From the NCBI GenBank assembly GCA_021775355.1, contig JAJFHZ010000025.1, positions 6,698 through 70,697 of the forward strand: a stretch of DNA of 64,000 nt. The letters are read 5' to 3'. Position numbers and translations under genes: made by a program. The stretch comes from Amylibacter sp. (GTDB taxonomy: Bacteria; Pseudomonadota; Alphaproteobacteria; Rhodobacterales; Rhodobacteraceae). Positions 102-58,477 of the stretch are shown piece by piece (the stretch's first letter is position 1; each line of letters opens with the position of its first letter). The notes beneath the pieces were generated by a model that saw only the letters and a program-made list of their open reading frames with translations, searched no databases and was not told the origin of the DNA.

Positions 102-671
102 ATGAAATATAACATAAATACGATAAGTCATGAATTCTCACCCAAAGAAGCAGCAAGAGTATCTGACGTTTCTACTGCTCTTCAACGAGATTGGCGTCGA
201 CGCGGCATATTACCAAAACGGCAAGGCGGTACGTGGTCAACCTTCAGTTTGGATGATGTTATCGAAATGACAGCTATGCGAGCATTTTCGAAAAGCGGCC
301 TATCCTTAGAAGCTTCAGAAAATATCGCTGGATTGGCTGTATTGCCAGTCATCGCAACACTTAGTCGTTGGGATGATACGGCTGTATTTGAAGGTGATAA
401 ATTGAATGAAGATCAAATGGCAAGAGTGCGTTCTAGTGCTGTTGTTGGTGCTTCAGAAGATGATCAATTCAGTTTTGTTGCTCTCCCTGAAAAGGTACAT
501 GGGTCAAGTGCAGCTAGATTAAAAAATCTAGCCGATGGTGAAATGATCATGAGCCGTAACAAAAGCTTTCATGCAATTGTACTAGACCATGTCGGGTTAG
601 CCCACCACATTGCAAATAACTCACCGCTTCCACTAATTCGCTATATCGTTGAGGTCACAGAAGATGGCTAG
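102..671 (+). CDS. Hypothetical island protein with an N-terminal MerR/excisionase-like helix-turn-helix
   Basis: 189-aa ORF. The N-terminus FSPKEAARVSDVSTALQRDWRRRGILP resembles a MerR-superfamily HTH. GTGAG-type repeats lie at 41-49, 77-84 (inverted) and 91-98 just upstream. Confidence 0.5.
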   Translation: MKYNINTISHEFSPKEAARVSDVSTALQRDWRRRGILPKRQGGTWSTFSLDDVIEMTAMRAFSKSGLSLEASENIAGLAVLPVIATLSRWDDTAVFEGDKLNEDQMARVRSSAVVGASEDDQFSFVALPEKVHGSSAARLKNLADGEMIMSRNKSFHAIVLDHVGLAHHIANNSPLPLIRYIVEVTEDG

Positions 672-837
672 TCCTAGAGCAACAGTAACCCAAGCAGAAT
701 TGACCCGGTACCTAAAAGCGTACCGTGATGCTGGTATTCCTGTGGCTCGCACCGAGATTGGCAGGGATGGCAAGGTAATTATTTTCACCATTGATAATCA
801 AAAAGATACTACAAAAAATGAATGGGATACACCATGA
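664..837 (+). CDS. Small hypothetical island protein (possible directionality factor)
   Basis: In-frame ATG at 664 follows a GAGG motif. The ORF overlaps the upstream gene end and the integrase start. No family was recognised. Confidence 0.4.
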   Translation: MASPRATVTQAELTRYLKAYRDAGIPVARTEIGRDGKVIIFTIDNQKDTTKNEWDTP

Positions 838-1949
838 AACATAAACGGCAATTTCCCAATACATCATCATACAACGACAGGCACGGCAAACGCCGCTGGC
901 GTTATCGCAAAGGTGCCTTTTCCGCGGAGTTAGGTTCTGCATATGGTTCACAAGAATTTATTGAACGCTATGAAGCCGCTAAAGAAGGCCACCGTACGCG
1001 CGGATTAATTGGCGCGGATCGTACAATACCGAGATCATTCTCTGCACTTGTTGCAAGCTACTATAAGTCAGCAGAATTTCTGGCATTGGAAAGCAGCACC
1101 AAGAAGAACTATCGTGGGATCATAGAGCGTCTTAGGCGTGAACACGGGAACAAACGTGTTAGCCATCTTGAACGCCGCCATATTGCAAATATGATGGCTG
1201 ATCGCTCTGACACACCAAATGCTGCAAACAATATGCGTAAGCGGCTTGCACAGTTATTGGATCACGCCATTCTATTAGATTGGCGCATAGATAACCCCGC
1301 AAAAAATGTGAAGCCGTACAAAATTGACAACAAAGGCTTCCACACTTGGGATGAAGGCGAAATCAAACAGTTCTTTGGCTATCATGGGCCTGAAACGATA
1401 CCGCACCGAGCGGTTGGCCTTATGCTTTACACAGGCGCGGCGCGCGCCGATGTAGTGAAAATGGGTTGGGGAAACATAAAAAACGGCAGGATTGAATACA
1501 GACGGCAGAAAACAATCAAAAGCAGTGGCGTCCCGATTAGTAGTCCCATCCATCCAGATTTGCAGGTGATTTTAGAAAATTGCCCGAAAGATATTTTCAC
1601 TTTTTTGGAAACATCACACGGCAAATCAAGGACAGCCGAAGGCTTTGGAAATGCGATGCGCGGCTGGTGCAATGAAGCTGGTTTAAAAAACTGTACGGCA
1701 CACGGGCTACGCAAGGCTTGTGCGCGGCGTCTGGCCGAAGCTGGTGCAACCCCGCATGAAATTCAGTCAATCACAGGACACAAAACGCTGTCAGAGGTCG
1801 ACAGATACACCAAAGAAGCAAACCGTGAAAACCTTGCTAATTCAGCATCAATGAAACTGGAAAACAGCCTAAACCAAGAACAAACCTTGGTGAACCTTTC
1901 AAATAGGTTCGCCAACAAGCCGCCTAAGCAGCTGAAAAGGAGTGATTAA
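822..1949 (+). CDS. Tyrosine-type site-specific integrase
   Basis: 375 aa. The C-terminal catalytic region reads HGLRKACARRLAEAGATPHEIQSITGHKTLSEVDRYT (H-x-x-R ... H ... Y). The gene is adjacent to a tRNA. Confidence 0.9.
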   Translation: MGYTMKHKRQFPNTSSYNDRHGKRRWRYRKGAFSAELGSAYGSQEFIERYEAAKEGHRTRGLIGADRTIPRSFSALVASYYKSAEFLALESSTKKNYRGIIERLRREHGNKRVSHLERRHIANMMADRSDTPNAANNMRKRLAQLLDHAILLDWRIDNPAKNVKPYKIDNKGFHTWDEGEIKQFFGYHGPETIPHRAVGLMLYTGAARADVVKMGWGNIKNGRIEYRRQKTIKSSGVPISSPIHPDLQVILENCPKDIFTFLETSHGKSRTAEGFGNAMRGWCNEAGLKNCTAHGLRKACARRLAEAGATPHEIQSITGHKTLSEVDRYTKEANRENLANSASMKLENSLNQEQTLVNLSNRFANKPPKQLKRSD

Positions 1950-1959
1950 ATTATGGTAG

Positions 1960-2036
<77 letters not shown>

Positions 2037-9922: not shown

Positions 9923-11851
9923 ATGGCCCTTTCCGTCGACCAATTATTGTCAAAAGCAAAATCTCTTGCGCGCAAAGGTGACATCAACACCGCCGCGCAA
10001 ATATATAAATCTGTATTGCAACGTTTTCCGCAGAACAAACGGGCCATTGACGGCCTTCAGACACTGCAACGGCATCACCCAAGACCTTCAACAACAAATA
10101 ACCAACCACCACAAAACCAAATCAACGCCTTGATTGCACAATTACAGCAGGGGCAATTAAAACAGGTTGTTCAAAATGCAACTGCTATGACGCACAACTT
10201 TCCAAATGCAATCGCCCTTTATGATCTACTTGGCATTGCGCATATGGGGCTACAGAACTACGACCAGTGCATTGCATGCTATCAAAAAGCCGTGCAAATC
10301 AAACCGGATTTCATCGAAGCTTATAATAATGTAGGTGCCGCATTAAAGGCACAAGGGCATTTCGATCTCGCTATTGAATATTACCAAAAAGCCCTGCAAG
10401 CTAGACCAAACTATGCTGAAGCACATAACAATCTGGGGATTGTACAACAGGGAAAAGGCAATTTTGACGCTGCCACTGAAAGCTTCAAAGATGCGCTGCA
10501 AATCAAACCGGATTATGCCGATGCACATCTTAATTTAGGCAGTGCCTTGAAGGAAATGGGCCTTTTGTCCGAGGCTATCGCAAGTTTCAAAAAAGGTCTT
10601 TCGATCACACCTGACAATGCAGAGGCACAAAACCATCTTGGGAATGCACAACAAATGCACGGGTCTTTAGAAGACGCCACCAAAAGCTATAAGAAAGCCT
10701 TGCAGATCAAACCGGATCTTGCCGAAGCATATCTTAATTTTGGCAGTGTGTTGCTGGCACAAGGGCATTCGGATGATGCACTCACAAACTATAAAACGGC
10801 CCTGAAATTCAAGCCCGACTACGCCCAAGCATACAGGCATTACACATCAATCACGAAACTCAAAGCAGAAGATGAATATACCGCCCGCCTGCCTGAACTT
10901 CTAAAATCAAAGGCAATATCACAAAATGACCGGATGCATTTAAGTTATGCTTTAAGTAAAGTGAAACTCGATCTGGGCCAACATGAAGAAGCCGTAAAAC
11001 TTCTACAAACAGCAAATGCACTGCGTAAAGACGAATTAAACTACGATATTTCTATTGATGAAGACCTTTTCAAAGACATCAAAAATGTATTTTCCACAAA
11101 AAATGCCCCAGTACCTGTCAGTTCTTTTGAAGATAAACCAAAAACCATACCGATTTTTATATTGGGAATGCCTAGGTCGGGAACTACATTAGTCGAACAG
11201 ATTATCTCCAGCCATTCAGATGTATATGGCGCAGGCGAATTAAGGTTTATGGATCGGATCATGGACAATCTTGATTGGAGAGGCGGCCATCTTAACCCCG
11301 ATGCCATAAACAATATTAGGGCCGAGTATTACGATAGTATTTCGGCTTTAAACATAGATAAGCCCTTTGTAACAGATAAAATGCCCGCAAACTTCAGATG
11401 GCTTGGCTTCATTTCCCAGGCTTTCCCCGAAGCAAAGATCGTTCACGTAGACCGCAACCCAGCGGCGGTTTGTTGGTCCAACTACAAACTTTATTTTCCG
11501 GCCAACGGTATGCGATTTAGTTTCGATATGGAAGATGTTGCTCACTATTATGGCCTATACCAAGACCTTATGCAGTTTTGGCGTGGGATTTTTCCAAACA
11601 GAATTTACGATCTTACGTATGAAAAACTTACCGAAAACCAACTTGAAGAAACCCAAAAACTTTTGACCTACCTGGAGCTGGATTGGCAAGATACGGTTAT
11701 AGATTTCCACAAAAATACTCGCAGTGTAGCAACCGCTTCAAGCCAACAGGTGCGCAGCAAAATGTATAAAGGTAGTTCTCAAGAGTGGGAACGTTATAAA
11801 AAACATCTTGGCCCGATGCTGAAGGTTTTGAATAATCTTCCAAAAAGTTAG
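9923..11851 (+). CDS. TPR-repeat protein with a C-terminal sulfotransferase domain
   Basis: Seven or more 34-aa TPR units (AYNNVGAALKAQGHFDLAIEYYQKALQARPNYAEA...). The C-terminal PAPS-binding-like loop reads ILGMPRSGTTLVEQIISSH. The track start is TTG at 9881; ATG at 9923 is preferred. Confidence 0.8.
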   Translation: MALSVDQLLSKAKSLARKGDINTAAQIYKSVLQRFPQNKRAIDGLQTLQRHHPRPSTTNNQPPQNQINALIAQLQQGQLKQVVQNATAMTHNFPNAIALYDLLGIAHMGLQNYDQCIACYQKAVQIKPDFIEAYNNVGAALKAQGHFDLAIEYYQKALQARPNYAEAHNNLGIVQQGKGNFDAATESFKDALQIKPDYADAHLNLGSALKEMGLLSEAIASFKKGLSITPDNAEAQNHLGNAQQMHGSLEDATKSYKKALQIKPDLAEAYLNFGSVLLAQGHSDDALTNYKTALKFKPDYAQAYRHYTSITKLKAEDEYTARLPELLKSKAISQNDRMHLSYALSKVKLDLGQHEEAVKLLQTANALRKDELNYDISIDEDLFKDIKNVFSTKNAPVPVSSFEDKPKTIPIFILGMPRSGTTLVEQIISSHSDVYGAGELRFMDRIMDNLDWRGGHLNPDAINNIRAEYYDSISALNIDKPFVTDKMPANFRWLGFISQAFPEAKIVHVDRNPAAVCWSNYKLYFPANGMRFSFDMEDVAHYYGLYQDLMQFWRGIFPNRIYDLTYEKLTENQLEETQKLLTYLELDWQDTVIDFHKNTRSVATASSQQVRSKMYKGSSQEWERYKKHLGPMLKVLNNLPKS

Positions 11852-11857
11852 ATTGTT

Positions 11858-13516
11858 TTAACCCAGCTCCCCTGCCAACCCGCTTTCAATCAGCGCTACC
11901 GTTTCATCGACCCCGTAAAGTGCGATAAACCCGCCAAACCGCGGCCCTTGGGATGCGCCCAGCAGAACCTCGTAAATCGCTTGAAACCAGTCGCGCAGAT
12001 TGCCAAATCCGTGGTTCTTGCCAACCGCGAAAACCAGAGCCTGCAAATCATCGGGAGAAGACAGCGCATAATCGCTTAAATCCGCATCCTTACCCATATC
12101 CGCATTCTTCTTCTCGATCATCGTTTTAGCCACATCGACATTGCGCAAACCCATCGCCAGATCAGTCAAAGCGGCGCGTTCCTGATCGTTCGGCGCACGG
12201 TACTTTTTCGTTGGCTTAACAAAATCGTGGTAATAGCTCACGGCAAAACCCGCCGCTGCATCCAATTGTGGGTTCTTTTCCGGTGAAGCATCAGGTGCGT
12301 ATTTGTTGATAGACCCCCACATGACTTCTTTGGTTTCGGCACTTGAAACCGATGCCACATTCAACAGCATCGCAAACGGTACAACCATATCGGACAAAGG
12401 TACATCACCGCCATGAATGTGAAACACAGGATTATTCAAACGCTGCGCCGTATCCTGTTCCACATAGGCCCGTAACTGTTGATGATATTCGTCCACCGCT
12501 TTCGGGATCACATCGAAATGCAATCGTTTCGCCGTACGCGGTTTTTGATACATGAAATACGACAAGCTTTCGGCAGAGGCATAGGTCAACCACTCATCAA
12601 TGGAAATTCCGTTGCCTTTGGACTTGGAAATCTTTTCACCGTTTTCATCCAGAAACATCTCATAAACATAATGCTCAGGCGCAGGAACACCCAAGATACG
12701 GCAAATCTTGTCGTAGATATGCGTGTTGGTGGAATGGTCTTTGCCGTACATCTCAAAGTCCACACCCAGTGCCGCCCAACGCGCCCCGAAGTCGGGTTTC
12801 CACTGCAACTTCACATTACCACCCGTCACAGGCAGCGATAGTTCCGTGCCATCCTCGTCATCAAAGGTGATCGTCCCGTCGGCTGCGTTCACTTCTTTCA
12901 TCGGCACATACAACACCCGTCCCGTGGTCGGGGAAATCGGCAGGAACAAACTATATGTCTGTTGCCGTTCTTCACGCAAAGACGCCAACATTACTTCCAT
13001 GATCGCGTCGTATTTCTTGACACAACGCAACAGCACTTCGTCGAATGCACCGGAACGGTAAAACTCGGTCGAACTGTAGAAATCATATTCAAACCCGAAC
13101 GTATCCAGAAACCGCAATAACATCGCGTTATTGTGGGCACCAAAGCTATCATATTTTTCAAACGGGTCAGGCACATCCGTTAAGGGCCGTTGCAGATACA
13201 CATCTAGGCCGCGCGGGTTCGGCACATTGTCTGGCACTTTGCGCATCCCGTCCAGATCATCCGAAAAACAAATCAACTTGGTCGGAATATCCGAGATCAC
13301 CTCAAAAGCACGACGGATCATTGTTGTCCGTGCCACTTCACCAAAGGTTCCAATATGTGGCAAACCGGATGGCCCGTAACCGGTTTCAAACAACACATAA
13401 CCCTTTTCAGGCGCACCGTTCTTGAATCGCGTCAACAGCTTTCGCGCTTCTTCAAAAGGCCAAGCTTTGGATTTCATCGCAAGTGCGCGTGTCTCGGACA
13501 TCGGTTTTTCCATCAA
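11858..13516 (-). CDS. lysK: Lysine--tRNA ligase, class I
   Basis: 552 aa. [20 protein letters not shown] (HIGH-type) and KISKSKG (KMSKS-type) motifs. Confidence 0.95.
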
Positions 13517-13595
13517 GTTTATTTCGCCCCTTCCCTATTGCCCCAAACGTGCAGGGTCAATATTGTAGGCTGAAATACAGGAAAAGAGTCGCAAG

Positions 13596-14018
13596 ATGAC
13601 ACAAACCCCCACACCATGGAGCCCCGAGGACGCACTTGTCGCGATGATGGTTGCCATGTCCGTATCGGATGAAGCGATGAAAACGCTGGAACTTCTATCC
13701 ATTGAACGCATCGTCAATAACCTGCCGATTTTTGCAAGCTATGACATAGACCGTCTGAGAACCACCTCACAAACCGTGTTTGACCTTATCGAAGAAGAGG
13801 ACGGTCTTGACGCCCTCTTTGGCCTAGTCCGTGCAGCTCTGCCCGAAAAACTGTATGAAACCGCCTACGCTTTATGCTGCGATGTTGCGGCATCAGATGG
13901 CCGCCTGCGCGAAGAAGAGCTGCGCTTCTTGCAGGAAACTCGGTATGAACTGAACATAGACCGCCTTCGCACCGCAGCCATTGAACGGGGTGCCAGGGCG
14001 CGTCACATGACGCTTTAG
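13596..14018 (+). CDS. TerB-like (tellurite-resistance family) protein
   Basis: 140 aa. ...CCDVAASDGRLREEELRFLQE is typical of the TerB fold. Confidence 0.6.
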   Translation: MTQTPTPWSPEDALVAMMVAMSVSDEAMKTLELLSIERIVNNLPIFASYDIDRLRTTSQTVFDLIEEEDGLDALFGLVRAALPEKLYETAYALCCDVAASDGRLREEELRFLQETRYELNIDRLRTAAIERGARARHMTL

Positions 14019-14485
14019 CCTTTCATTGGTATCAAATCATCTTCTTTTACAGTCTCCATAACTGCAAAAGAATGCGTCTGCATGACACCGGGCAACTTAC
14101 CGATTTGCTCTCCAAGGACTTCGCGAAAATGCGAAATATCACGGGTACGCACCTTAAGCATGTAATCAAATTGCCCCGCAATCAGCAGGCAACTTTGAAT
14201 CTCTGCTATGTCTTTTACCGCTTCGTTGAAATCATCAAGTGAATTTTCACTGGTCTTCATTAAACTGATGTGTACGATCGTCACGTGTCCCATTCCAATT
14301 AAACTCGGATTAAGAACCGCACGATAGTGACTGATAACACCAGTCCTTTCCAACCGTTTCACGCGTTCTGAACACGGTGTTTTGGTCAAATGAACCCTGT
14401 TTGCCAATTCAACTATCGATAATCTTCCATTGCTTTGAAGCTCATCCAAAATCCGTTGATCAATTGCATCTAATTGCCTTCTCAT
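14015..14485 (-). CDS. Lrp/AsnC family transcriptional regulator
   Basis: LDAIDQRILDELQSNGRLSIVELANRVHLTKTPCSERVKRLE HTH plus a RAM domain. Confidence 0.92.
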   Translation of the reverse strand: MRRQLDAIDQRILDELQSNGRLSIVELANRVHLTKTPCSERVKRLERTGVISHYRAVLNPSLIGMGHVTIVHISLMKTSENSLDDFNEAVKDIAEIQSCLLIAGQFDYMLKVRTRDISHFREVLGEQIGKLPGVMQTHSFAVMETVKEDDLIPMKG

Positions 14486-51976: not shown

Positions 51977-52053
51977 GCACCGATAGCTCAGCTGGATAGA
52001 GTACCTGACTACGAATCAGGGGGCCAGGGGTTCGAATCCCTTTCGGTGCACCA
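51977..52053 (+). tRNA. tRNA-Arg (anticodon ACG)
   Basis: GCACCGA acceptor, GCTCAGCTGGATAGAGT D arm, CCTGA-CTACGAA-TCAGG anticodon arm, GGTTCGAATCC T arm, encoded CCA. Confidence 0.93.
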
Positions 52054-52269
52054 CCACACTTAACACTTTGATATTACATGTTTTTCTTGCGTAATTAACC
52101 CGTACTTCCGGACGTTAAGAAGGTGTAATATTACCCCAGACCCAAAACATGCAGTTATTTGGCCAGAATCTATCAAAAGTCTGGGAACGGCTTTTGCACG
52201 GTCGCCGTTTGCGGGGTCGTGATGCAGTGCTGAAGGTAATGTAGAGGTTTTTAAAATAACACTGTTCTC

Positions 52270-53934
52270 TTACAGAGGGCGGAACATCTCACGCTGATCA
52301 TGCCAGATGGTTGGAAAGGCATGACGCAACAGCCATCCGGTTGTCAGTCCTAGTGGCTGGCTGCCTTCATAAACGTCGCGAATGACGTCCGGTGCCAGAA
52401 AAGCCAGTTCAATCAATTTCTTAATCCGGTCCTTTGAAACACCTTCCACTGTGGCAATCTCCGTATATGTCCGGCCAGCCCGAACCATGGCAAAGTAGCG
52501 ATGCGCTCTGGCGATGTTTTTGAACAGAACCTCATCGCGCGGAGATATGGCATCGGCGAGAATAATTTTGGTTTCAACACCGCGCTTACGATGTTGGAAC
52601 TCTGAGCTGAACACCAGGATTTCGCTGTTAATGCGCTCTGGTGTTACGCTCAGGTGCACAGCAACGGCTTTTACACAAAGCGCAATCGTGATCTTGCCCG
52701 GAGTGATATCAACACGGTTGACCAAGGTATGGGGGTCTGGACCTGTTACCTCACGACACTTATTTTGTGGCGAAAGGCGCTCACTAGAACCCGCAAGTTC
52801 ATCGGTTGTAGCGTCCTGTATAATGTTAGCAACGTTTTCAGCTTTACTTAGATGCCCTACGACCAGTTCAGCAATCGCAGCTTCAAGCGGCGGCCCGGGC
52901 AACCGCCATCCACCCGGGTCTTTCTTATCTGTACTGCGGATCAGACGATGCGACACATAATACCGAAGCCTGCGACCCTTTGCTGTTTTGGTATGGCTGG
53001 GCGTCAACCTGTCACCGGTTTCGTCAAACACTTTGCCGATCAGCAGAGATAACTGCTTTTTCCCACGCACATCACTTTGTCCTTTCCCTGTGCGCGGCTT
53101 GACTGCACCTGCCTTCAGTTGTTCCTGCAATTGATCCCAGATATCAGGATTGATGATCGCCTCATGCTGGCCGGGGTAGACCTTTGTCTTGTGACGGATC
53201 CTGCCCGCGTAGATCGGATTGGTCAGGATATGATAGATGTGGCCAAAGCTGAAGCGTGCGCCACCCTTCATCCGGCCTGAAGGCAAAGTTCGTACAGCTG
53301 TTCTTAATCCCTGCTGGTCGGCTTTTTGTTTGGTCATTCTGACAGTCCCGTGTTGGTGGTAAAGATCATAGATGGTCCGAATGATCTGCGCATCCGGTTC
53401 ACTGATTTTTAAGGTTCGCCCATCGGATTCATAACCGATGGGCACATTACCTCCCATCCAGAGCCCCTTTTTCTTGGATGCCGCTATTTTGTCGCGAATA
53501 CGTTCTGCTGTAACCTCGCGTTCAAACTGTGCAAATGACAGCAGCATATTCAGCGTCAGGCGGCCCATGCTGGTAGCCGTGTTGAAGGATTGTGTGACAG
53601 ATACAAATGAAGCTCCCGCATCATCCAGAATATCAACGATCTTCACAAAATCCGCCAGCGAGCGGGTCAGACGGTCAATCTTATAGACGATGACCCGATC
53701 GACCTTTCCTGATCTGATGTCTGCAAGCAAGTGCTGCAAACCAGGTCGTTCCAGCGTTCCACCTGACAGGCCACCATCATCGTAAGCTCCCGGCACCAGC
53801 ACCCAACCTTCATTCTTCTGGCTCACAATATAAGCCGCACAAGCCTCACGCTGTGCATCAAGTGAATTAAAGTCCTGTTCCAGACCGTCTTCGGTGCTCT
53901 TTCGCGTATATATGGCGCAGCGGATCTTTTTCAT
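52270..53934 (-). CDS. Large serine recombinase
   Basis: 554 aa. N-terminal resolvase domain AIYTRKSTEDGLEQDFNSLDAQREAC...YKIDRLTRS, followed by a recombinase domain. Confidence 0.92.
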   Translation of the reverse strand: MKKIRCAIYTRKSTEDGLEQDFNSLDAQREACAAYIVSQKNEGWVLVPGAYDDGGLSGGTLERPGLQHLLADIRSGKVDRVIVYKIDRLTRSLADFVKIVDILDDAGASFVSVTQSFNTATSMGRLTLNMLLSFAQFEREVTAERIRDKIAASKKKGLWMGGNVPIGYESDGRTLKISEPDAQIIRTIYDLYHQHGTVRMTKQKADQQGLRTAVRTLPSGRMKGGARFSFGHIYHILTNPIYAGRIRHKTKVYPGQHEAIINPDIWDQLQEQLKAGAVKPRTGKGQSDVRGKKQLSLLIGKVFDETGDRLTPSHTKTAKGRRLRYYVSHRLIRSTDKKDPGGWRLPGPPLEAAIAELVVGHLSKAENVANIIQDATTDELAGSSERLSPQNKCREVTGPDPHTLVNRVDITPGKITIALCVKAVAVHLSVTPERINSEILVFSSEFQHRKRGVETKIILADAISPRDEVLFKNIARAHRYFAMVRAGRTYTEIATVEGVSKDRIKKLIELAFLAPDVIRDVYEGSQPLGLTTGWLLRHAFPTIWHDQREMFRPL

Positions 53935-54371
53935 TGGCCTGCCCCTGCCCCGCCCGTCAGGTCAAAGAAACGCGGTCCTGACCAGTTTGTGCCGGTAATA
54001 TGAAGCGCGATGGCAGACAGTGATTTGAAGCGTTCCTCGCCCAACATATAACAGTCTTCCCTCACCTCAACGCTGTAACATCGCCCGTTCCATTCGCGGA
54101 TCAATTGTGTTCCCGGCTTGGCGGCAGCTGCCGCCGGCATGCTTGGAGATTTGCCATCCGCAGTAGCCTTCAGTGCCCGCTTCAAGGCAGGCGAAAGCCC
54201 GCCAAAGCGACGGCATTGTTCATCCCAAATCAGTGCCTTACGCATAAACATCATCGATATATGATGCGGAGATGCCATCTCGAACGCTTTTACCCAGGCG
54301 ACACGAAGGTCGGAACGATCCAGATTGCTCAATTCAGACATCCGCGCATGAATGTCATTATCGCCGGCCAT
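53931..54371 (-). CDS. DUF2924 domain protein
   Basis: Pattern LDRSDLRVAWVKAF...FGGLSPALKRALK...REWNGRCYSVEV...FKSLSAIALHITGTNWSGPRFF. Four-nt overlap with the recombinase. Confidence 0.75.
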   Translation of the reverse strand: MAGDNDIHARMSELSNLDRSDLRVAWVKAFEMASPHHISMMFMRKALIWDEQCRRFGGLSPALKRALKATADGKSPSMPAAAAAKPGTQLIREWNGRCYSVEVREDCYMLGEERFKSLSAIALHITGTNWSGPRFFDLTGGAGAGQ

Positions 54372-54676
54372 CAGGCGTCCTGCTGCGCAGGCAGACTTGT
54401 GATACGGTAGTGGGTAAGCTTACAGTTTCCCGACTTCACGGACGTAATCACGTAGCCCGTTTTACGTAGTTTGCTCAGGGCCGAACGGGTCGTATGCGGT
54501 AGCCAGCCCAACCTCTTGCTGAGACTGCCGACATCAGCCCCGCGGTCTTTACTCAGAAAGCCGATCAGTCTTGCCCTCTTGGTTACCCTAGGGCGCCGTG
54601 AAACCCGTGCCACTTTGCCAGGATTTATCTGTGCCGTGGTCATCTCGGGTATCTTTTTGATAGATATATTGGTCAT
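54371..54676 (-). CDS. DUF3489 domain protein
   Basis: KRARLIGFLSKDRGADVGSLSKRLGWLPHTTRSALSKLRKTGY winged-helix-like pattern. The start is set at MTNIS after GAAGGA. Confidence 0.7.
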   Translation of the reverse strand: MTNISIKKIPEMTTAQINPGKVARVSRRPRVTKRARLIGFLSKDRGADVGSLSKRLGWLPHTTRSALSKLRKTGYVITSVKSGNCKLTHYRITSLPAQQDA

Positions 54677-54952
54677 AATTATTCCTTCTGTATCAGGCAA
54701 AGCCATCCCGGCTCTGCTACTGATCAAAGCCCGGAGTGTTCGGGCGAAGGGTGCAACACAATTCCTAATGCGTCGGTGGTGACAGTACCGCTCTGTAAGC
54801 CTCCGAAGTCCAGTGGTTTATGGCTTAAGGGCCAAAAGCTGACATGGTAACTATGGGCGGAAAGCGGACATCTGAGTGTTTGACTCAGGATAATAGCCAA
54901 ATTCCCAAGAGCCGACATTCTAATCTCCGACCGATTGTAAATCTGTAGCCGA

Positions 54953-55534
54953 TTATTTGTAGGTCAGCCGAGGGCCTACAGCGTCTATGCCGATGGAAGC
55001 GATAAGTTCGTAGTAGCCGAATAGCACCAGCAAGAAGAAAGCAAAGAGGATCAGCTCATGCTTGAAGTGATGAGAATGGAAGTATGATCTGTCGCGATGG
55101 TGAATAACATCCATCAGTTCGTCGCCAAAGCGGATCGACAGGAACGTGCCCAAGCCTGACAGAACAATTACCCCCCAATAGGGATATGGAGTCAGTAATA
55201 TCTTATGCAACAGTTCGGTCAGGATGGTGGTTTTGTAGTAAGTTGGGGCATAAAATAGCGTCACAGCGTTTAGGGCAATGGCGACGCCCCAGACAGCAAC
55301 TTCGGAAACCACCATACGAATGCCAAAAAGCAATCGGAGGGGGAAATCCAATAGAAACCCCGCGTCGGCAACTGGAGTACATAAGACGAAGAAACTCCAT
55401 GTTAACATTGCTGCAATGCCACCGGTCGCAACGCCATACTCGTAACTGAGATACCCAAAATAACCGACCAAAATAGCGCACAGAAGAACGAACTTGATGA
55501 AAATCTGTATACTCGGTTTTGCTTTCATATCCAT
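54953..55534 (-). CDS. Polytopic membrane protein of unknown function with a His-rich loop
   Basis: 193 aa, five or six hydrophobic segments, loop HHRDRSYFHSHHFKH. Divergent from the two-component operon. Confidence 0.6.
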   Translation of the reverse strand: MDMKAKPSIQIFIKFVLLCAILVGYFGYLSYEYGVATGGIAAMLTWSFFVLCTPVADAGFLLDFPLRLLFGIRMVVSEVAVWGVAIALNAVTLFYAPTYYKTTILTELLHKILLTPYPYWGVIVLSGLGTFLSIRFGDELMDVIHHRDRSYFHSHHFKHELILFAFFLLVLFGYYELIASIGIDAVGPRLTYK

Positions 55535-55683
55535 GCCCAGTATTCAATAGTCTTTGCGATGTATCGAATACCGTTGCGGTAGTCCAGCCCGCGATCTGGG
55601 ATGCTGCGTGTGGAGCGTGGGGTTTTCACTTGTGGCTGGTTAAAGCCCAAAGTGTAAGTAAGCCTATATGTATCATCAACTTC

Positions 55684-55700
55684 GTAAGTCTTCTGTAAGC
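55684..55700 (+). promoter_or_regulatory. GTAAGTCTTCTGTAAGC (GTAAG-N6-GTAAG); candidate OmpR-family binding site, copy 1
   Basis: Identical to 58407-58423, with 11-bp half-site phasing. About 50 nt upstream of the DUF6134-like/RR/HK operon. A related TGTAAGTAAGCC lies at 55653-55664. Confidence 0.6.
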
Positions 55701-55752
55701 TAACTCCGCCAGTGCATATCTCAATGTACCTCTCATTTACATGGAGTATGAT

Positions 55753-56346
55753 ATGAGACTTTCAATTTTGACTATGGGATTGGCCGTATGTCTTGCCGCC
55801 CCCATTAACGCGGCATCATTACCGCAATCTGGCAGCTTAAAATTCGATGTGATCCGAAAAGGTAAAGACATTGGCGATCACAGTTACAAGTTTTCTGGAA
55901 CAAAAAATTCTTACTCCGTTAAAGTGTCCACGAATGTTATAGTCAAAGTGCCACTTATAAAATTAACAGCGTATAACTTTCAGCATGATAGTGTTGAGAC
56001 TTGGAAAAATGGCAAGCTACAAAAGCTATGGTCAACCACAAATGATGACGGTACGCCACACAAGGTGAACTCAGGTGCCAGTTCTATTTTGCCAGCCAGC
56101 CTGTGGAATGAGGACATTGTTAAAAGAAAAACACTGTTGAACACCGTGAATGGTAAGAAAATGTCTATCCGTGCGGCTGATTTTGGGAGTGAATCTATCA
56201 CCACAAAAAAAGGTACAGTCAGCGCGAGACACTACCGCATCTCTGGTGGGTTGGAGCGCGATCTTTGGTATGATGCAAATGGCGATCTTGCGCGTGTCTC
56301 ATTTAAAGCAGATGATGGCTCTGTAGTGATATACGTACGAAATTAG
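55753..56346 (+). CDS. Secreted beta-rich protein (DUF6134/DUF3108-like)
   Basis: Signal peptide MRLSILTMGLAVCLAAPINA, then LKFDVIRKGKDIGDHSYKF... The family assignment is from memory and is tentative. Confidence 0.6.
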   Translation: MRLSILTMGLAVCLAAPINAASLPQSGSLKFDVIRKGKDIGDHSYKFSGTKNSYSVKVSTNVIVKVPLIKLTAYNFQHDSVETWKNGKLQKLWSTTNDDGTPHKVNSGASSILPASLWNEDIVKRKTLLNTVNGKKMSIRAADFGSESITTKKGTVSARHYRISGGLERDLWYDANGDLARVSFKADDGSVVIYVRN

Positions 56347-56356
56347 GATGTAGCCG

Positions 56357-57034
56357 ATGCGGCTTCTATATGTGGAAGACAATGTGAAGTTGGCGCAAAA
56401 TACATGCGCCAGCTTACAAAAGAATAGCTTTACGGTTGATGTAGTACATACAGGTGAAGATGCAATTCACGCTGCAAAATCCTATGACTATGACGCAATT
56501 GTTTTGGATTTAGGCCTGCCGGATATGGATGGTCTTAGCGTTTTAAGTGACATCAAAAGCGTAAAGCCTGAAGTCCCTGTCATAATTTGTACAGCCCGGG
56601 ATGCACTTGATGATCGTTTGAAAGGGTTAAACTCTGGTTCGGATGATTATCTTGTAAAGCCATTTAATGTGTCCGAATTGATTGCAAGGATAAAAGCCGT
56701 GTTGCGTCGTCCGGGTGGAGCGTTGGGTTTGGTTTTACAGGCAGGCAACATTAATTTTCATACGGTGGACCGATCCGTTAAAATTTCTGACAAGCCTGCA
56801 AAATTATCAAAACGTGAGCTAGATCTTTTAGAATTATTCATGCGGCGCAAAGGACGTATCCAATCAAAAGATGCCATTGAGAATGCTTTGTATGGCTTTG
56901 ATGAGCCCCCGACGCCGAATGCAATTGAGGTTGCAGCGCATCGCTTGCGTAAAAAGTTGGTGGATTTAGGGGCAACATCAAAAATTCAAACGCTGCGCGG
57001 TATAGGCTACATCTTGGAAGATGATGGGCAATGA
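56357..57034 (+). CDS. OmpR/PhoB-family response regulator
   Basis: MRLLYVEDN...VLDLGLPDMDG...KPF receiver, plus a winged-helix output ending IQTLRGIGYIL. Confidence 0.93.
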   Translation: MRLLYVEDNVKLAQNTCASLQKNSFTVDVVHTGEDAIHAAKSYDYDAIVLDLGLPDMDGLSVLSDIKSVKPEVPVIICTARDALDDRLKGLNSGSDDYLVKPFNVSELIARIKAVLRRPGGALGLVLQAGNINFHTVDRSVKISDKPAKLSKRELDLLELFMRRKGRIQSKDAIENALYGFDEPPTPNAIEVAAHRLRKKLVDLGATSKIQTLRGIGYILEDDGQ

Positions 57035-58401
57035 AAGTGTTCAACATTCTTTTTGGCGAACGATACTCTCTTCGCCGCAGCTTAATCATCAATATCATCA
57101 TTGCATTAAGCATATGTATTGCCCTGGCCATGATTGTACTGGTTCGGGAATTCTATGAGCATTTGGCAGAAAATGTTGAAGATGCACTTTATGAAGAAGC
57201 CAAGGAAGTTGTCAGGCAGATTGACCCCAGTTTAGATACATATGGCCTGCAGTCTGATGCTAGACGTTTTGAAGGAGTAACTGGACTGTATAGATATACA
57301 GTGTTCGACACCGCAGGCACGCCGATTGCAGGCACTGAAACATCACCAGAAATTCAATCACAGATGCAAGGGTTGGAACTCGACCAGCCAAGAAAAATAT
57401 CGCTGTTAGGTGAACGATTGGGGATTGGTTTACGTGCAAAGATAGATAATCAGAATTTTTTTGTTTTAGCTTCGACCTATCCAAAGGGCACCGAGAAGAC
57501 GAAGTTTCAAAAGCTTGTTTACGAAATTCAAGAGGAAATCATTTGGGTGGCTCTTGGGGTCATAACGATTTTAACCGCGGCCATATTTGCAACCAGAAGA
57601 GCGTTGCGCCCGTTGAGGTCTATACAAAAACAAGCGCAACTTATTGGCCCATCTGCCACGACCAAACGATTATCGATCGAACGCCTGCCAGCGGAGTTGG
57701 CACCGTTGATTACTTCCGTGAATGGTGCTTTTGAACGCCTTGAAAAAGGTTACCAGGCACAACGCGATTTTTCTTCTAATGTCGCTCATGAAATCAGAAC
57801 ACCATTGGCGGTGCTTCGATCCAGTATCGATATGATTGATAATCCAGAAGTCAAAGAAACCATCTATGAAGACGTTCTACGCTTAGACCGAATGTTCGAA
57901 CAGATGATTGATTTATCGCGTGCGGATGCATTGGCAAAAACGACCCATGAGCCAATAGATTTACACCAGCTTGTCGTAGATTTGGCAATGGATATGAGTG
58001 CAGGAGCATTGAAAGACGGGAAGTCTTTGGCTGTCACAGGTGTTGAAAATTGTACTGTTGTTGGGAATAAAGGGTTACTGACCGTTGCTGTTGGAAATCT
58101 GGTGCGCAATGCGTTGAATTACTCTCCGATTGGCACGGAAGTCGAAATAGACGTTACGGTAAATCCGTCCGGTATCCGTGTCTTGGATCGTGGTGACGGG
58201 GTCAGTGACGCACAAAAGCAAACATTGTTTGAACGTTTTCAAAGGGGGGCTCCGACGAATGATAACGTCTCTGGGTCCGGTATTGGATTGGCAATTGTTA
58301 AGTCTGTAGCGGATGCGCATAATGCCAATATCGAGGTTCACGACCGACACGGTGGTGGCAGCGTTTTCGAACTTATTTTCCAATCGGACAAAAAATCATA
58401 A
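57031..58401 (+). CDS. Sensor histidine kinase with two TM helices and a periplasmic loop
   Basis: H box SSNVAHEIRTPLAVL, N box NLVRNALNYS, G box GSGIGLAIV. ATGA overlap with the RR gene. Confidence 0.92.
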   Translation: MKVFNILFGERYSLRRSLIINIIIALSICIALAMIVLVREFYEHLAENVEDALYEEAKEVVRQIDPSLDTYGLQSDARRFEGVTGLYRYTVFDTAGTPIAGTETSPEIQSQMQGLELDQPRKISLLGERLGIGLRAKIDNQNFFVLASTYPKGTEKTKFQKLVYEIQEEIIWVALGVITILTAAIFATRRALRPLRSIQKQAQLIGPSATTKRLSIERLPAELAPLITSVNGAFERLEKGYQAQRDFSSNVAHEIRTPLAVLRSSIDMIDNPEVKETIYEDVLRLDRMFEQMIDLSRADALAKTTHEPIDLHQLVVDLAMDMSAGALKDGKSLAVTGVENCTVVGNKGLLTVAVGNLVRNALNYSPIGTEVEIDVTVNPSGIRVLDRGDGVSDAQKQTLFERFQRGAPTNDNVSGSGIGLAIVKSVADAHNANIEVHDRHGGGSVFELIFQSDKKS

Positions 58402-58406
58402 CTCTT

Positions 58407-58423
58407 GTAAGTCTTCTGTAAGC
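58407..58423 (+). promoter_or_regulatory. GTAAGTCTTCTGTAAGC, copy 2
   Basis: Begins 6 nt after the kinase stop and about 55 nt before the ATG at 58478. As in copy 1, it is followed by a CCGCC...CATAT segment. Confidence 0.6.
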
Positions 58424-58477
58424 CGAGCCGCCCCATATGCATGTTGAAAGCATATGAAAGCATGCCTGAGGCACGAT

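Follow-up and report, generated by a model that had tools for sequence, protein, structure and literature searches.

The direct repeat GTAAG-N6-GTAAG, which stands in front of the transcription units of a two-component cassette in a 64,000-nucleotide stretch of the Amylibacter sp. genome (contig JAJFHZ010000025.1; the whole stretch is referred to as the window), is with good probability the operator of the PmrA-like response regulator encoded within the cassette at 56357-57034. The cassette contains, in order, the genes for a DUF6134 protein, the response regulator (RR), a sensor histidine kinase (HK), a T_hemolysin-family protein, an acyl-coenzyme A (CoA) ligase-like enzyme, a short-chain dehydrogenase/reductase (SDR) and a TauD-family dioxygenase. 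The original prediction had proposed, from the window sequence, that the repeat is the operator of the adjacent OmpR-family regulator, that it serves both operons, and that the operons form one sensor-controlled module. This core proposal is strongly supported by phylogenetic footprinting across related loci and by the finding that the regulator is PmrA-like with conserved TAA-reading residues.

As originally described, the identical 17-mer GTAAGTCTTCTGTAAGC stands before both operons, on the plus strand at 55684-55700 and 58407-58423, where 0.07 copies are expected by chance. No further match was found in the 64-kb window even when up to three mismatches were allowed, and none of 100 shuffled sequences reached two copies. 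When the pattern was relaxed to GTAAG-N6-GTAAG, with the half-sites at motif positions 1-5 and 12-16, a third perfect site that had been overlooked was found at 61290-61305 (GTAAGCTCCCCGTAAG). The window thus holds three perfect motifs, each inside the cassette:

55684-55699, plus strand: candidate operator site 1, GTAAG-TCTTCT-GTAAG, ending 53 nt upstream of the DUF6134 start codon
58407-58422, plus strand: candidate operator site 2, GTAAG-TCTTCT-GTAAG, starting 6 nt past the kinase stop codon (58399-58401); 55 nt separate its end from the T_hemolysin ATG at 58478
61290-61305, plus strand: candidate operator site 3, GTAAG-CTCCCC-GTAAG, which overlaps the stop codon of the SDR gene; its end lies 45 nt upstream of the TauD ATG

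With up to one mismatch, five motif matches were found in the window, a number reached by 0 of 100 shuffles. Sites 1 and 2 are alike over 29 nt without gaps (83% identity), the likeness extending upstream and including an identical spacer, and the similar CCGCC...CATAT segment reported to follow both copies is present. The degenerate half-sites described at 55653-55664 and 54792-54801 also exist as written, but a role for them is not supported: the isolated half-sites are neither enriched nor conserved and lie out of 11-bp phase with site 1. The heptamer TGTAAGC shows no enrichment in the window, with 8 copies versus 6.3 expected.

For the comparison with other genomes, a profile-guided scan using a 10-sequence alignment, with one genome per species, yielded 40 related loci, which together with the window comprise 714,299 nt. 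In this sequence we found 71 perfect GTAAG-N6-GTAAG motifs, compared with 0.83 expected from composition, and the same pentamers at spacings of 0-5 and 7-15 nt gave only 0 to 1 match each. All 71 motifs lie in or beside the cassette. Sixty-five of them are located 44-63 nt before a start codon, that of DUF6134 in 28 cases, the T_hemolysin gene in 26 and TauD in 11; the remaining 6 are also tied to the system, and two of these precede an accessory flavin monooxygenase gene. For DUF6134, a perfect motif was found 45-62 nt ahead of the start codon in every one of 28 genomes; for the T_hemolysin gene, it was found at 45-57 nt in all 25 genomes that have the main gene order, and a perfect motif also precedes this gene in locus L032. 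Frequent occurrence without promoter association, which the original prediction had named as evidence against itself, was not seen as far as the data allow, no copy being found outside the system.

Anchored alignments of 70 distinct sites showed that the ten core positions are invariant. The flanks have diverged and carry information close to zero, with essentially none in the 30 nt upstream, and weaker preferences were found for c-T ahead of the first repeat, for T at positions 3 and 6 of the spacer, and for yC after the second repeat. A third half-site was also considered and rejected: there is no information 11 bp upstream or downstream of the two repeats, and the site therefore fits a dimer. 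The motif is letter-perfect in about 30 marine Rhodobacteraceae genomes. Judged from these alignments, the pattern is a textbook phylogenetic footprint.

The genes themselves form a cassette conserved across Rhodobacteraceae, to which the DUF6134 homologues are almost entirely confined. In the window, the cassette genes are as follows:

55753-56346, plus strand: DUF6134 protein, beta-barrel-like and probably secreted, with a putative signal peptide; first gene of the sensor operon (Pfam PF19630, E value 4e-42)
56357-57034, plus strand: OmpR-type response regulator (Response_reg PF00072, E value 2e-26; Trans_reg_C PF00486, E value 1e-18)
57031-58401, plus strand: sensor histidine kinase with two putative transmembrane segments and HAMP, HisKA and HATPase_c domains; its start overlaps the RR stop codon
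58478-59077, plus strand: T_hemolysin-family protein with a predicted LuxI/FeeM-like GCN5-related N-acetyltransferase (GNAT) fold (PF12261, E value 3e-35)
59077-60522, plus strand: AMP-binding (acyl-CoA ligase-like) enzyme
60522-61304, plus strand: SDR
61351-62211, plus strand: TauD/TfdA-family Fe(II)/2-oxoglutarate dioxygenase

The DUF6134 and RR genes are separated by 10 nt, the RR and HK genes overlap, and 5 nt lie between the HK stop codon and site 2. The longest-open-reading-frame starts at 58454 and 55741 are probably wrong, as homologues begin with MKIEFL (58478) and MRLSIL (55753); the distances from motif to start codon were measured from these homologue-supported starts.

The order DUF6134-RR-HK-T_hemolysin-ligase-SDR-TauD, complete or partly cut by contig ends, was found in 27 of the 40 loci, in genera that include Amylibacter, Roseovarius, Sulfitobacter, Pseudophaeobacter, Phycobacter, Tateyamaria and Rhodovulum. 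Culturable carriers include Pseudophaeobacter profundi, Roseovarius sp. ZX-A-9 and Roseovarius nitratireducens, and among the complete genomes with the cassette are those of Sulfitobacter sp. SK012, Roseovarius faecimaris, Litoreibacter janthinus and Phaeobacter gallaeciensis JL2886. In L030 and L032, the biosynthetic genes come first and are followed by DUF6134-RR-HK, and a third order is found in Paracoccus, with a divergent, distantly related RR-HK pair. The regulator is encoded within the cassette in 30 of the 36 loci that have cassette genes besides DUF6134.

Compared across these loci, the distribution of sites is that of one operator per transcription unit. L032, whose genes form a single long operon, has one site, at its head. 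The TauD site is perfect in 12 genomes belonging to two separate clades, the Amylibacter group that includes the window and a Roseovarius/Rhodovulum group with GTAAGCAAGGCGTAAG, and its distance to the ATG is always 44-47 nt; a further 11 genomes lack the site, and in 1 it is degenerate. The flavin monooxygenase (Baeyer-Villiger type, 500-515 amino acids) is an accessory cassette member in two genomes of the Amylibacter clade, and each gene copy has a motif 55-63 nt upstream. In L001, the monooxygenase gene (367-1914, minus strand) is oriented divergently to DUF6134 and is preceded by an inverted motif of its own (1969-1984, minus strand). In L002, it lies between the kinase and T_hemolysin genes (12733-14232, plus strand) with a motif at 12654-12669, giving consecutive sites in that genome. 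The window lacks the monooxygenase gene and has an unrelated membrane-protein gene in the divergent position.

The Paracoccus-type loci (L029, L031, L033, L034, L036 and L041, the last being plasmid pAK1 of Paracoccus sp. AK26) carry the divergent RR-HK pair beside T_hemolysin-ligase-SDR-TauD-DUF6134. In five of the six loci, the neighboring regulator is 37% identical and the recognition-helix His is replaced by Ser, and in all six the T_hemolysin gene is preceded by GTAAG-N6-GCAAG (GAAAG on one plasmid). The GCAAG form is also found upstream of a PepSY/cytochrome b561 gene pair in Paracoccus. In this comparison, then, regulator and motif change together. A search of plasmids found only the Paracoccus-type variant, in one strain, on a 472-kb non-mobilizable replicon.

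We then compared the regulator with characterized members of its family. Its best solved relatives are the PmrA/BasR proteins of Klebsiella and E. coli (E value 2e-43). In NCBIfam, its top match is the Rhodobacterales CtrA model (188 bits versus a 350-bit CtrA cut-off), and it scores 187.7 bits against the 330-bit cut-off of the PmrA equivalog (NF007928), 146 bits against the PhoB model (cut-off 296) and 96 bits as a weak match to CpxR. It also falls well below the equivalog cut-offs for TctD and QseB. Orthology to PmrA, CtrA, TctD, QseB or any other named regulator was rejected on these scores.

PmrA recognizes the box XTTAAY-N5-XTTAAY, which replaces the -35 element, and it reads the TAA bases through its residues T187, N188, V192 and H195 (PMC10570014). 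The HMMER alignment places P, N, V and H of the window regulator at these positions, so that three of the four are kept. The recognition-helix core NAIEVxxHR(L/V)R does not vary among the 28 regulators that share at least 64% identity with that of the window, nor in the two of the L030/L032 type, and the Pro preceding the core is kept in 25 of the 28. When all 30 regulators at least 56% identical were considered, Asn, Val and His were invariant and Pro was present in 27. The shared 11-bp period, the TAA core, the retained TAA-reading residues, co-location and co-variation together make the cassette's own regulator the most likely binder.

The element resembles the PmrA box of Klebsiella, Salmonella and E. 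coli (PDB 4S04/4S05 and 8JO2) in its direct half-sites with an 11-bp period, its TAA core and, as proposed here, a position at the -35 region (PMC10570014). The PmrA box is bound by an OmpR/PhoB-family dimer, and a binder of the same family, with N188, V192 and H195 kept, is predicted here. It differs in that the half-site here is (T)GTAAG, with an invariant G where the PmrA XTTAAY has T, and in that T187 is replaced by Pro. PmrA targets lipopolysaccharide-modification genes, whereas the sites described here precede the DUF6134/kinase and acyltransferase/ligase/SDR/TauD operons of an alphaproteobacterial host. The Pho box of PhoB is similar in consisting of tandem 11-bp direct repeats; it replaces the -35 element, is used by a class-II-like activator and belongs to a regulon that contains the regulator's own operon, as would the element here under the mechanism proposed below. 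The PhoB repeat is CTGTCAT, which differs from GTAAG, and the regulator here is not PhoB. The CtrA box, TTAA-N7-TTAA(C), shares the 11-bp period, the xTAA core and, by prediction, an OmpR-family binder, but the first base of the half-site here is invariantly G rather than T, the regulator is not CtrA, and the sites are confined to one cassette. The box of CpxR, an autoregulating OmpR-family protein, is GTAAA-N5-GTAAA; it is likewise a repeat of a GTAA-type pentamer, but with a 10-bp period and a final A in place of G. By this comparison, the element is a direct-repeat box of the well-known OmpR/PhoB-family type, unusually clearly defined, for an uncharacterized system.

In the mechanism we propose, the operator would consist of two half-sites with an 11-bp period beside or over the -35 region, and a dimer of the phosphorylated regulator would bind both half-sites head to tail. 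One copy would serve each unit, namely DUF6134-RR-HK, where it would provide autoregulation, the T_hemolysin/ligase/SDR operon, and a lineage-specific internal TauD promoter. A signal perceived by the kinase would in this way switch on the entire 6.6-kb module together. Several observations weigh against this assignment. About half of the genomes lack site 3. A search with an E. coli-type -10 matrix gave no hexamer whose distance to the motif is constant; the best ones were spread broadly around +22 to +27. L003 (Amylibacter sp. NORP268, 9989-12140) is a decaying cassette that has lost both its biosynthetic operon and the RR gene, where a 150-nt gap now separates DUF6134 from the kinase; it nevertheless keeps two perfect sites as relics. 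L035 retains a variant motif without a regulator within 6 kb. It follows that the motif can persist after the loss of an adjacent regulator or stand apart from one. Finally, the scan covered the window and the 40 loci, and the regulator may have further targets outside this sequence, or the motif a second binding protein.

Binding of the regulator could lead to activation or to repression. Activation is the likelier mode of action, because of the analogy with PmrA and PhoB and the promoter-like distance of each site to its start codon. Alternatively, the same regulator could occupy the motif as a repressor, by promoter occlusion or as a roadblock, in which case sites 2 and 3 would damp read-through. 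Such an arrangement would agree with the absence of a terminator or a clear sigma-70 promoter between HK and the T_hemolysin gene and between SDR and TauD, where both were sought. The second half-site together with the preceding T's (TTGTAA) also resembles a weak -35 element, so that occlusion of RNA polymerase is conceivable, and a fixed -10 spacing was not found: a consensus promoter scan returned none beside the sites, and with the spread of the -10 matrix offsets this led us to reject a fixed -10 element. However, PmrA and PhoB, the closest characterized relatives, activate from boxes that replace the -35 element (PMC10570014), and the promoter-like spacing of 44-63 nt is kept, even at the heads of divergent units such as the L001 monooxygenase gene, whereas a roadblock needs no such spacing. 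We therefore consider repression improbable.

The sole conserved feature downstream of the motif is a 'CA(T)' located 11-13 nt after it. If 'CA(T)' marks the start of a weak -10 element, the box would lie at about -38 to -23, near the PhoB/PmrA arrangement and nearly equal in geometry to the Pho box. The PhoB box is located at -41 to -25 (PMC10570014).

It is also conceivable that the motif is bound by a different protein encoded elsewhere and that the adjacent two-component system is incidental. An obvious candidate is CtrA, the alphaproteobacterial master regulator, whose box TTAA-N7-TTAA has the same 11-bp period and differs from GTAA-N7-GTAA only at the first base of each half-site. The top NCBIfam match of the cassette regulator is itself a CtrA model, although far below the cut-off, and the motifs of L035 and L003 persist without an adjacent regulator. 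However, position 1 of both half-sites is G in 70 of 70 sites and never T, all 71 motifs in 714 kb belong to the cassette, and the motif tracks the cassette through three gene orders and is altered where the neighboring regulator differs, all of which makes another binder very unlikely. Least credible of all is an RNA-level element (an mRNA processing or protein-binding site) or a non-regulatory scar of recent duplication, gene conversion or a mobile-element end: sites 2 and 3 do lie within a run of co-directional genes and would be transcribed by read-through, the two identical window copies share their spacer and extra similarity on both sides, and the homology with L001 has its left limit 6 nt from site 1, but the motif is conserved in 10 genera or more with flanks that have diverged and spacers that vary, which excludes recent duplication, a strict 11-bp direct repeat has no RNA-structure rationale, a search of 54700-62700 gave no Rfam family match, and the sites heading divergent units lie upstream of any plausible transcript. 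Both CtrA and an RNA element or scar are thus disfavored by the cassette-exclusive occurrence, the invariant G, the strict spacing and the sites that head divergent units.

Besides the motif, we observed a stem-loop in the leader of the T_hemolysin gene (58440-58480 in the window; L001-L027), which pairs the Shine-Dalgarno region and, in the window, also the start codon. Its arms vary by clade yet remain complementary (CCTCAAC/GTTGAGG, CCTCATGA/TCATGAGG, GCCTCG/CGAGGC and GGGCC/GGCCC). In single-sequence folding, the mean z-score of the minimum free energy was -1.8 for the T_hemolysin leaders (26 loci), +0.2 for the DUF6134 leaders and +0.6 for the TauD leaders; RNAalifold on a MAFFT alignment of the T_hemolysin leaders gave no consensus pairs. 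The stem-loop may be a translational control element.

To define the extent of the module, we used the homology between the window and L001, its closest relative. It begins at AACTTC|GTAAG (about 55678), 6 nt upstream of site 1, and ends at about 62295. On this evidence, the conserved module is the 6.6-kb segment of about 55678-62295, starting at the operator itself. The original prediction of a single module from 55.0 to 62.2 kb is supported as to its unity, with the limits changed accordingly. Its suggestion that the regulator may also control the divergent membrane-protein gene is not supported: no homologue of this gene was found in the 40 related loci, and it has no motif in its own orientation. 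With the L001 homology starting 6 nt before site 1, the gene was rejected as a target. The features to the left of the module are as follows:

51977-52053: tRNA-Arg(ACG)
52270-53934, minus strand: large serine recombinase, 554 amino acids
54953-55534, minus strand: membrane protein of 193 amino acids, no family match

Two small open reading frames on the minus strand accompany the recombinase (window 51977-54727). The G+C content of the module (0.43-0.47) is lower than that of its surroundings (0.50-0.53), and, given the nearby tRNA-Arg gene and serine recombinase, carriage on an island is plausible here. Within the window, the 3' end of the tRNA-Arg gene is not repeated, and there is no tRNA-derived repeat that would close an island. 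The membrane-protein gene and the seven-gene module (7.5 kb) are bracketed by an imperfect direct repeat of about 55 nt, at 54826-54885 and 62342-62395 (about 79% identity). No further copy is present in the window, and 41 related loci have none; the repeat may be an insertion scar or an att-like duplication.

We also examined what the cassette might produce. The structural model of the T_hemolysin-family protein (predicted local distance difference test score [pLDDT] 89) has TofI, MesI, FeeM, LasI and RpaI as its top PDB matches (template modeling [TM] scores 0.51-0.60, E value about 5e-7) at a sequence identity of 9-16%. BjaI is also among the best matches, and the acyl-homoserine lactone (AHL) synthases and FeeM rank ahead of generic GNATs. 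By sequence, Pfam assigns only PF12261, and there is no NCBIfam match; by these searches, the protein does not belong to the autoinducer synthase family. From the fold, it is a probable LuxI/FeeM-like acyltransferase. The model also suggests that the family name 'thermostable hemolysin' is misleading for these alphaproteobacterial PF12261 members. The DUF6134 model (pLDDT 90) has DUF1849 as its best PDB match (6NTR, TM score 0.61), and LolA/LprG-like matches are weak.

The acyl-CoA-ligase-like gene next to the predicted acyltransferase gene is a parallel to the CoA-dependent AHL synthases. The predicted acyltransferase, together with the ligase, SDR and dioxygenase, suggests a modified acylated small molecule made under sensor control, and the operator shared with the sensor operon suggests positive feedback. 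A shared operator on the sensor and synthase operons would give autoinduction-like feedback, in which the cassette would resemble LuxI-type systems. The cassette differs from LuxI systems in having no LuxR-type receptor, and sensing would be through the histidine kinase. We put forward, as a tentative idea of low probability, that the cassette is a self-contained signal circuit new to roseobacters, in which an acylated molecule is made and is sensed by DUF6134 and the kinase in an autoinduction loop. The acyltransferase, acyl-CoA-type ligase, SDR and TauD hydroxylase, with the flavin monooxygenase in some genomes, would make the molecule; sensing of this molecule, or of a related host or algal lipid, would fall to the histidine kinase and the secreted beta-barrel DUF6134 protein. 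In the literature that was searched, no paper mentions DUF6134 or describes this cassette in roseobacters. If the idea is true, quorum-sensing-like logic would run through a two-component system instead of LuxR.

The results provide a likely exact cis-element and a defined minimal regulon for an uncharacterized two-component system. The system travels with DUF6134 and a 'thermostable hemolysin' gene through Amylibacter, Roseovarius, Sulfitobacter, Pseudophaeobacter, Tateyamaria and Rhodovulum, with a variant in Paracoccus. The motif has the specificity needed for annotating the regulon in any genome, its position matrix being expected to give about 4-5 chance hits per 4 Mb, and it allows the design of reporters that could reveal the signal of the kinase. 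A gene annotated as 'hemolysin' is thereby recast as that of a probable LuxI/FeeM-like acyltransferase under sensor control.

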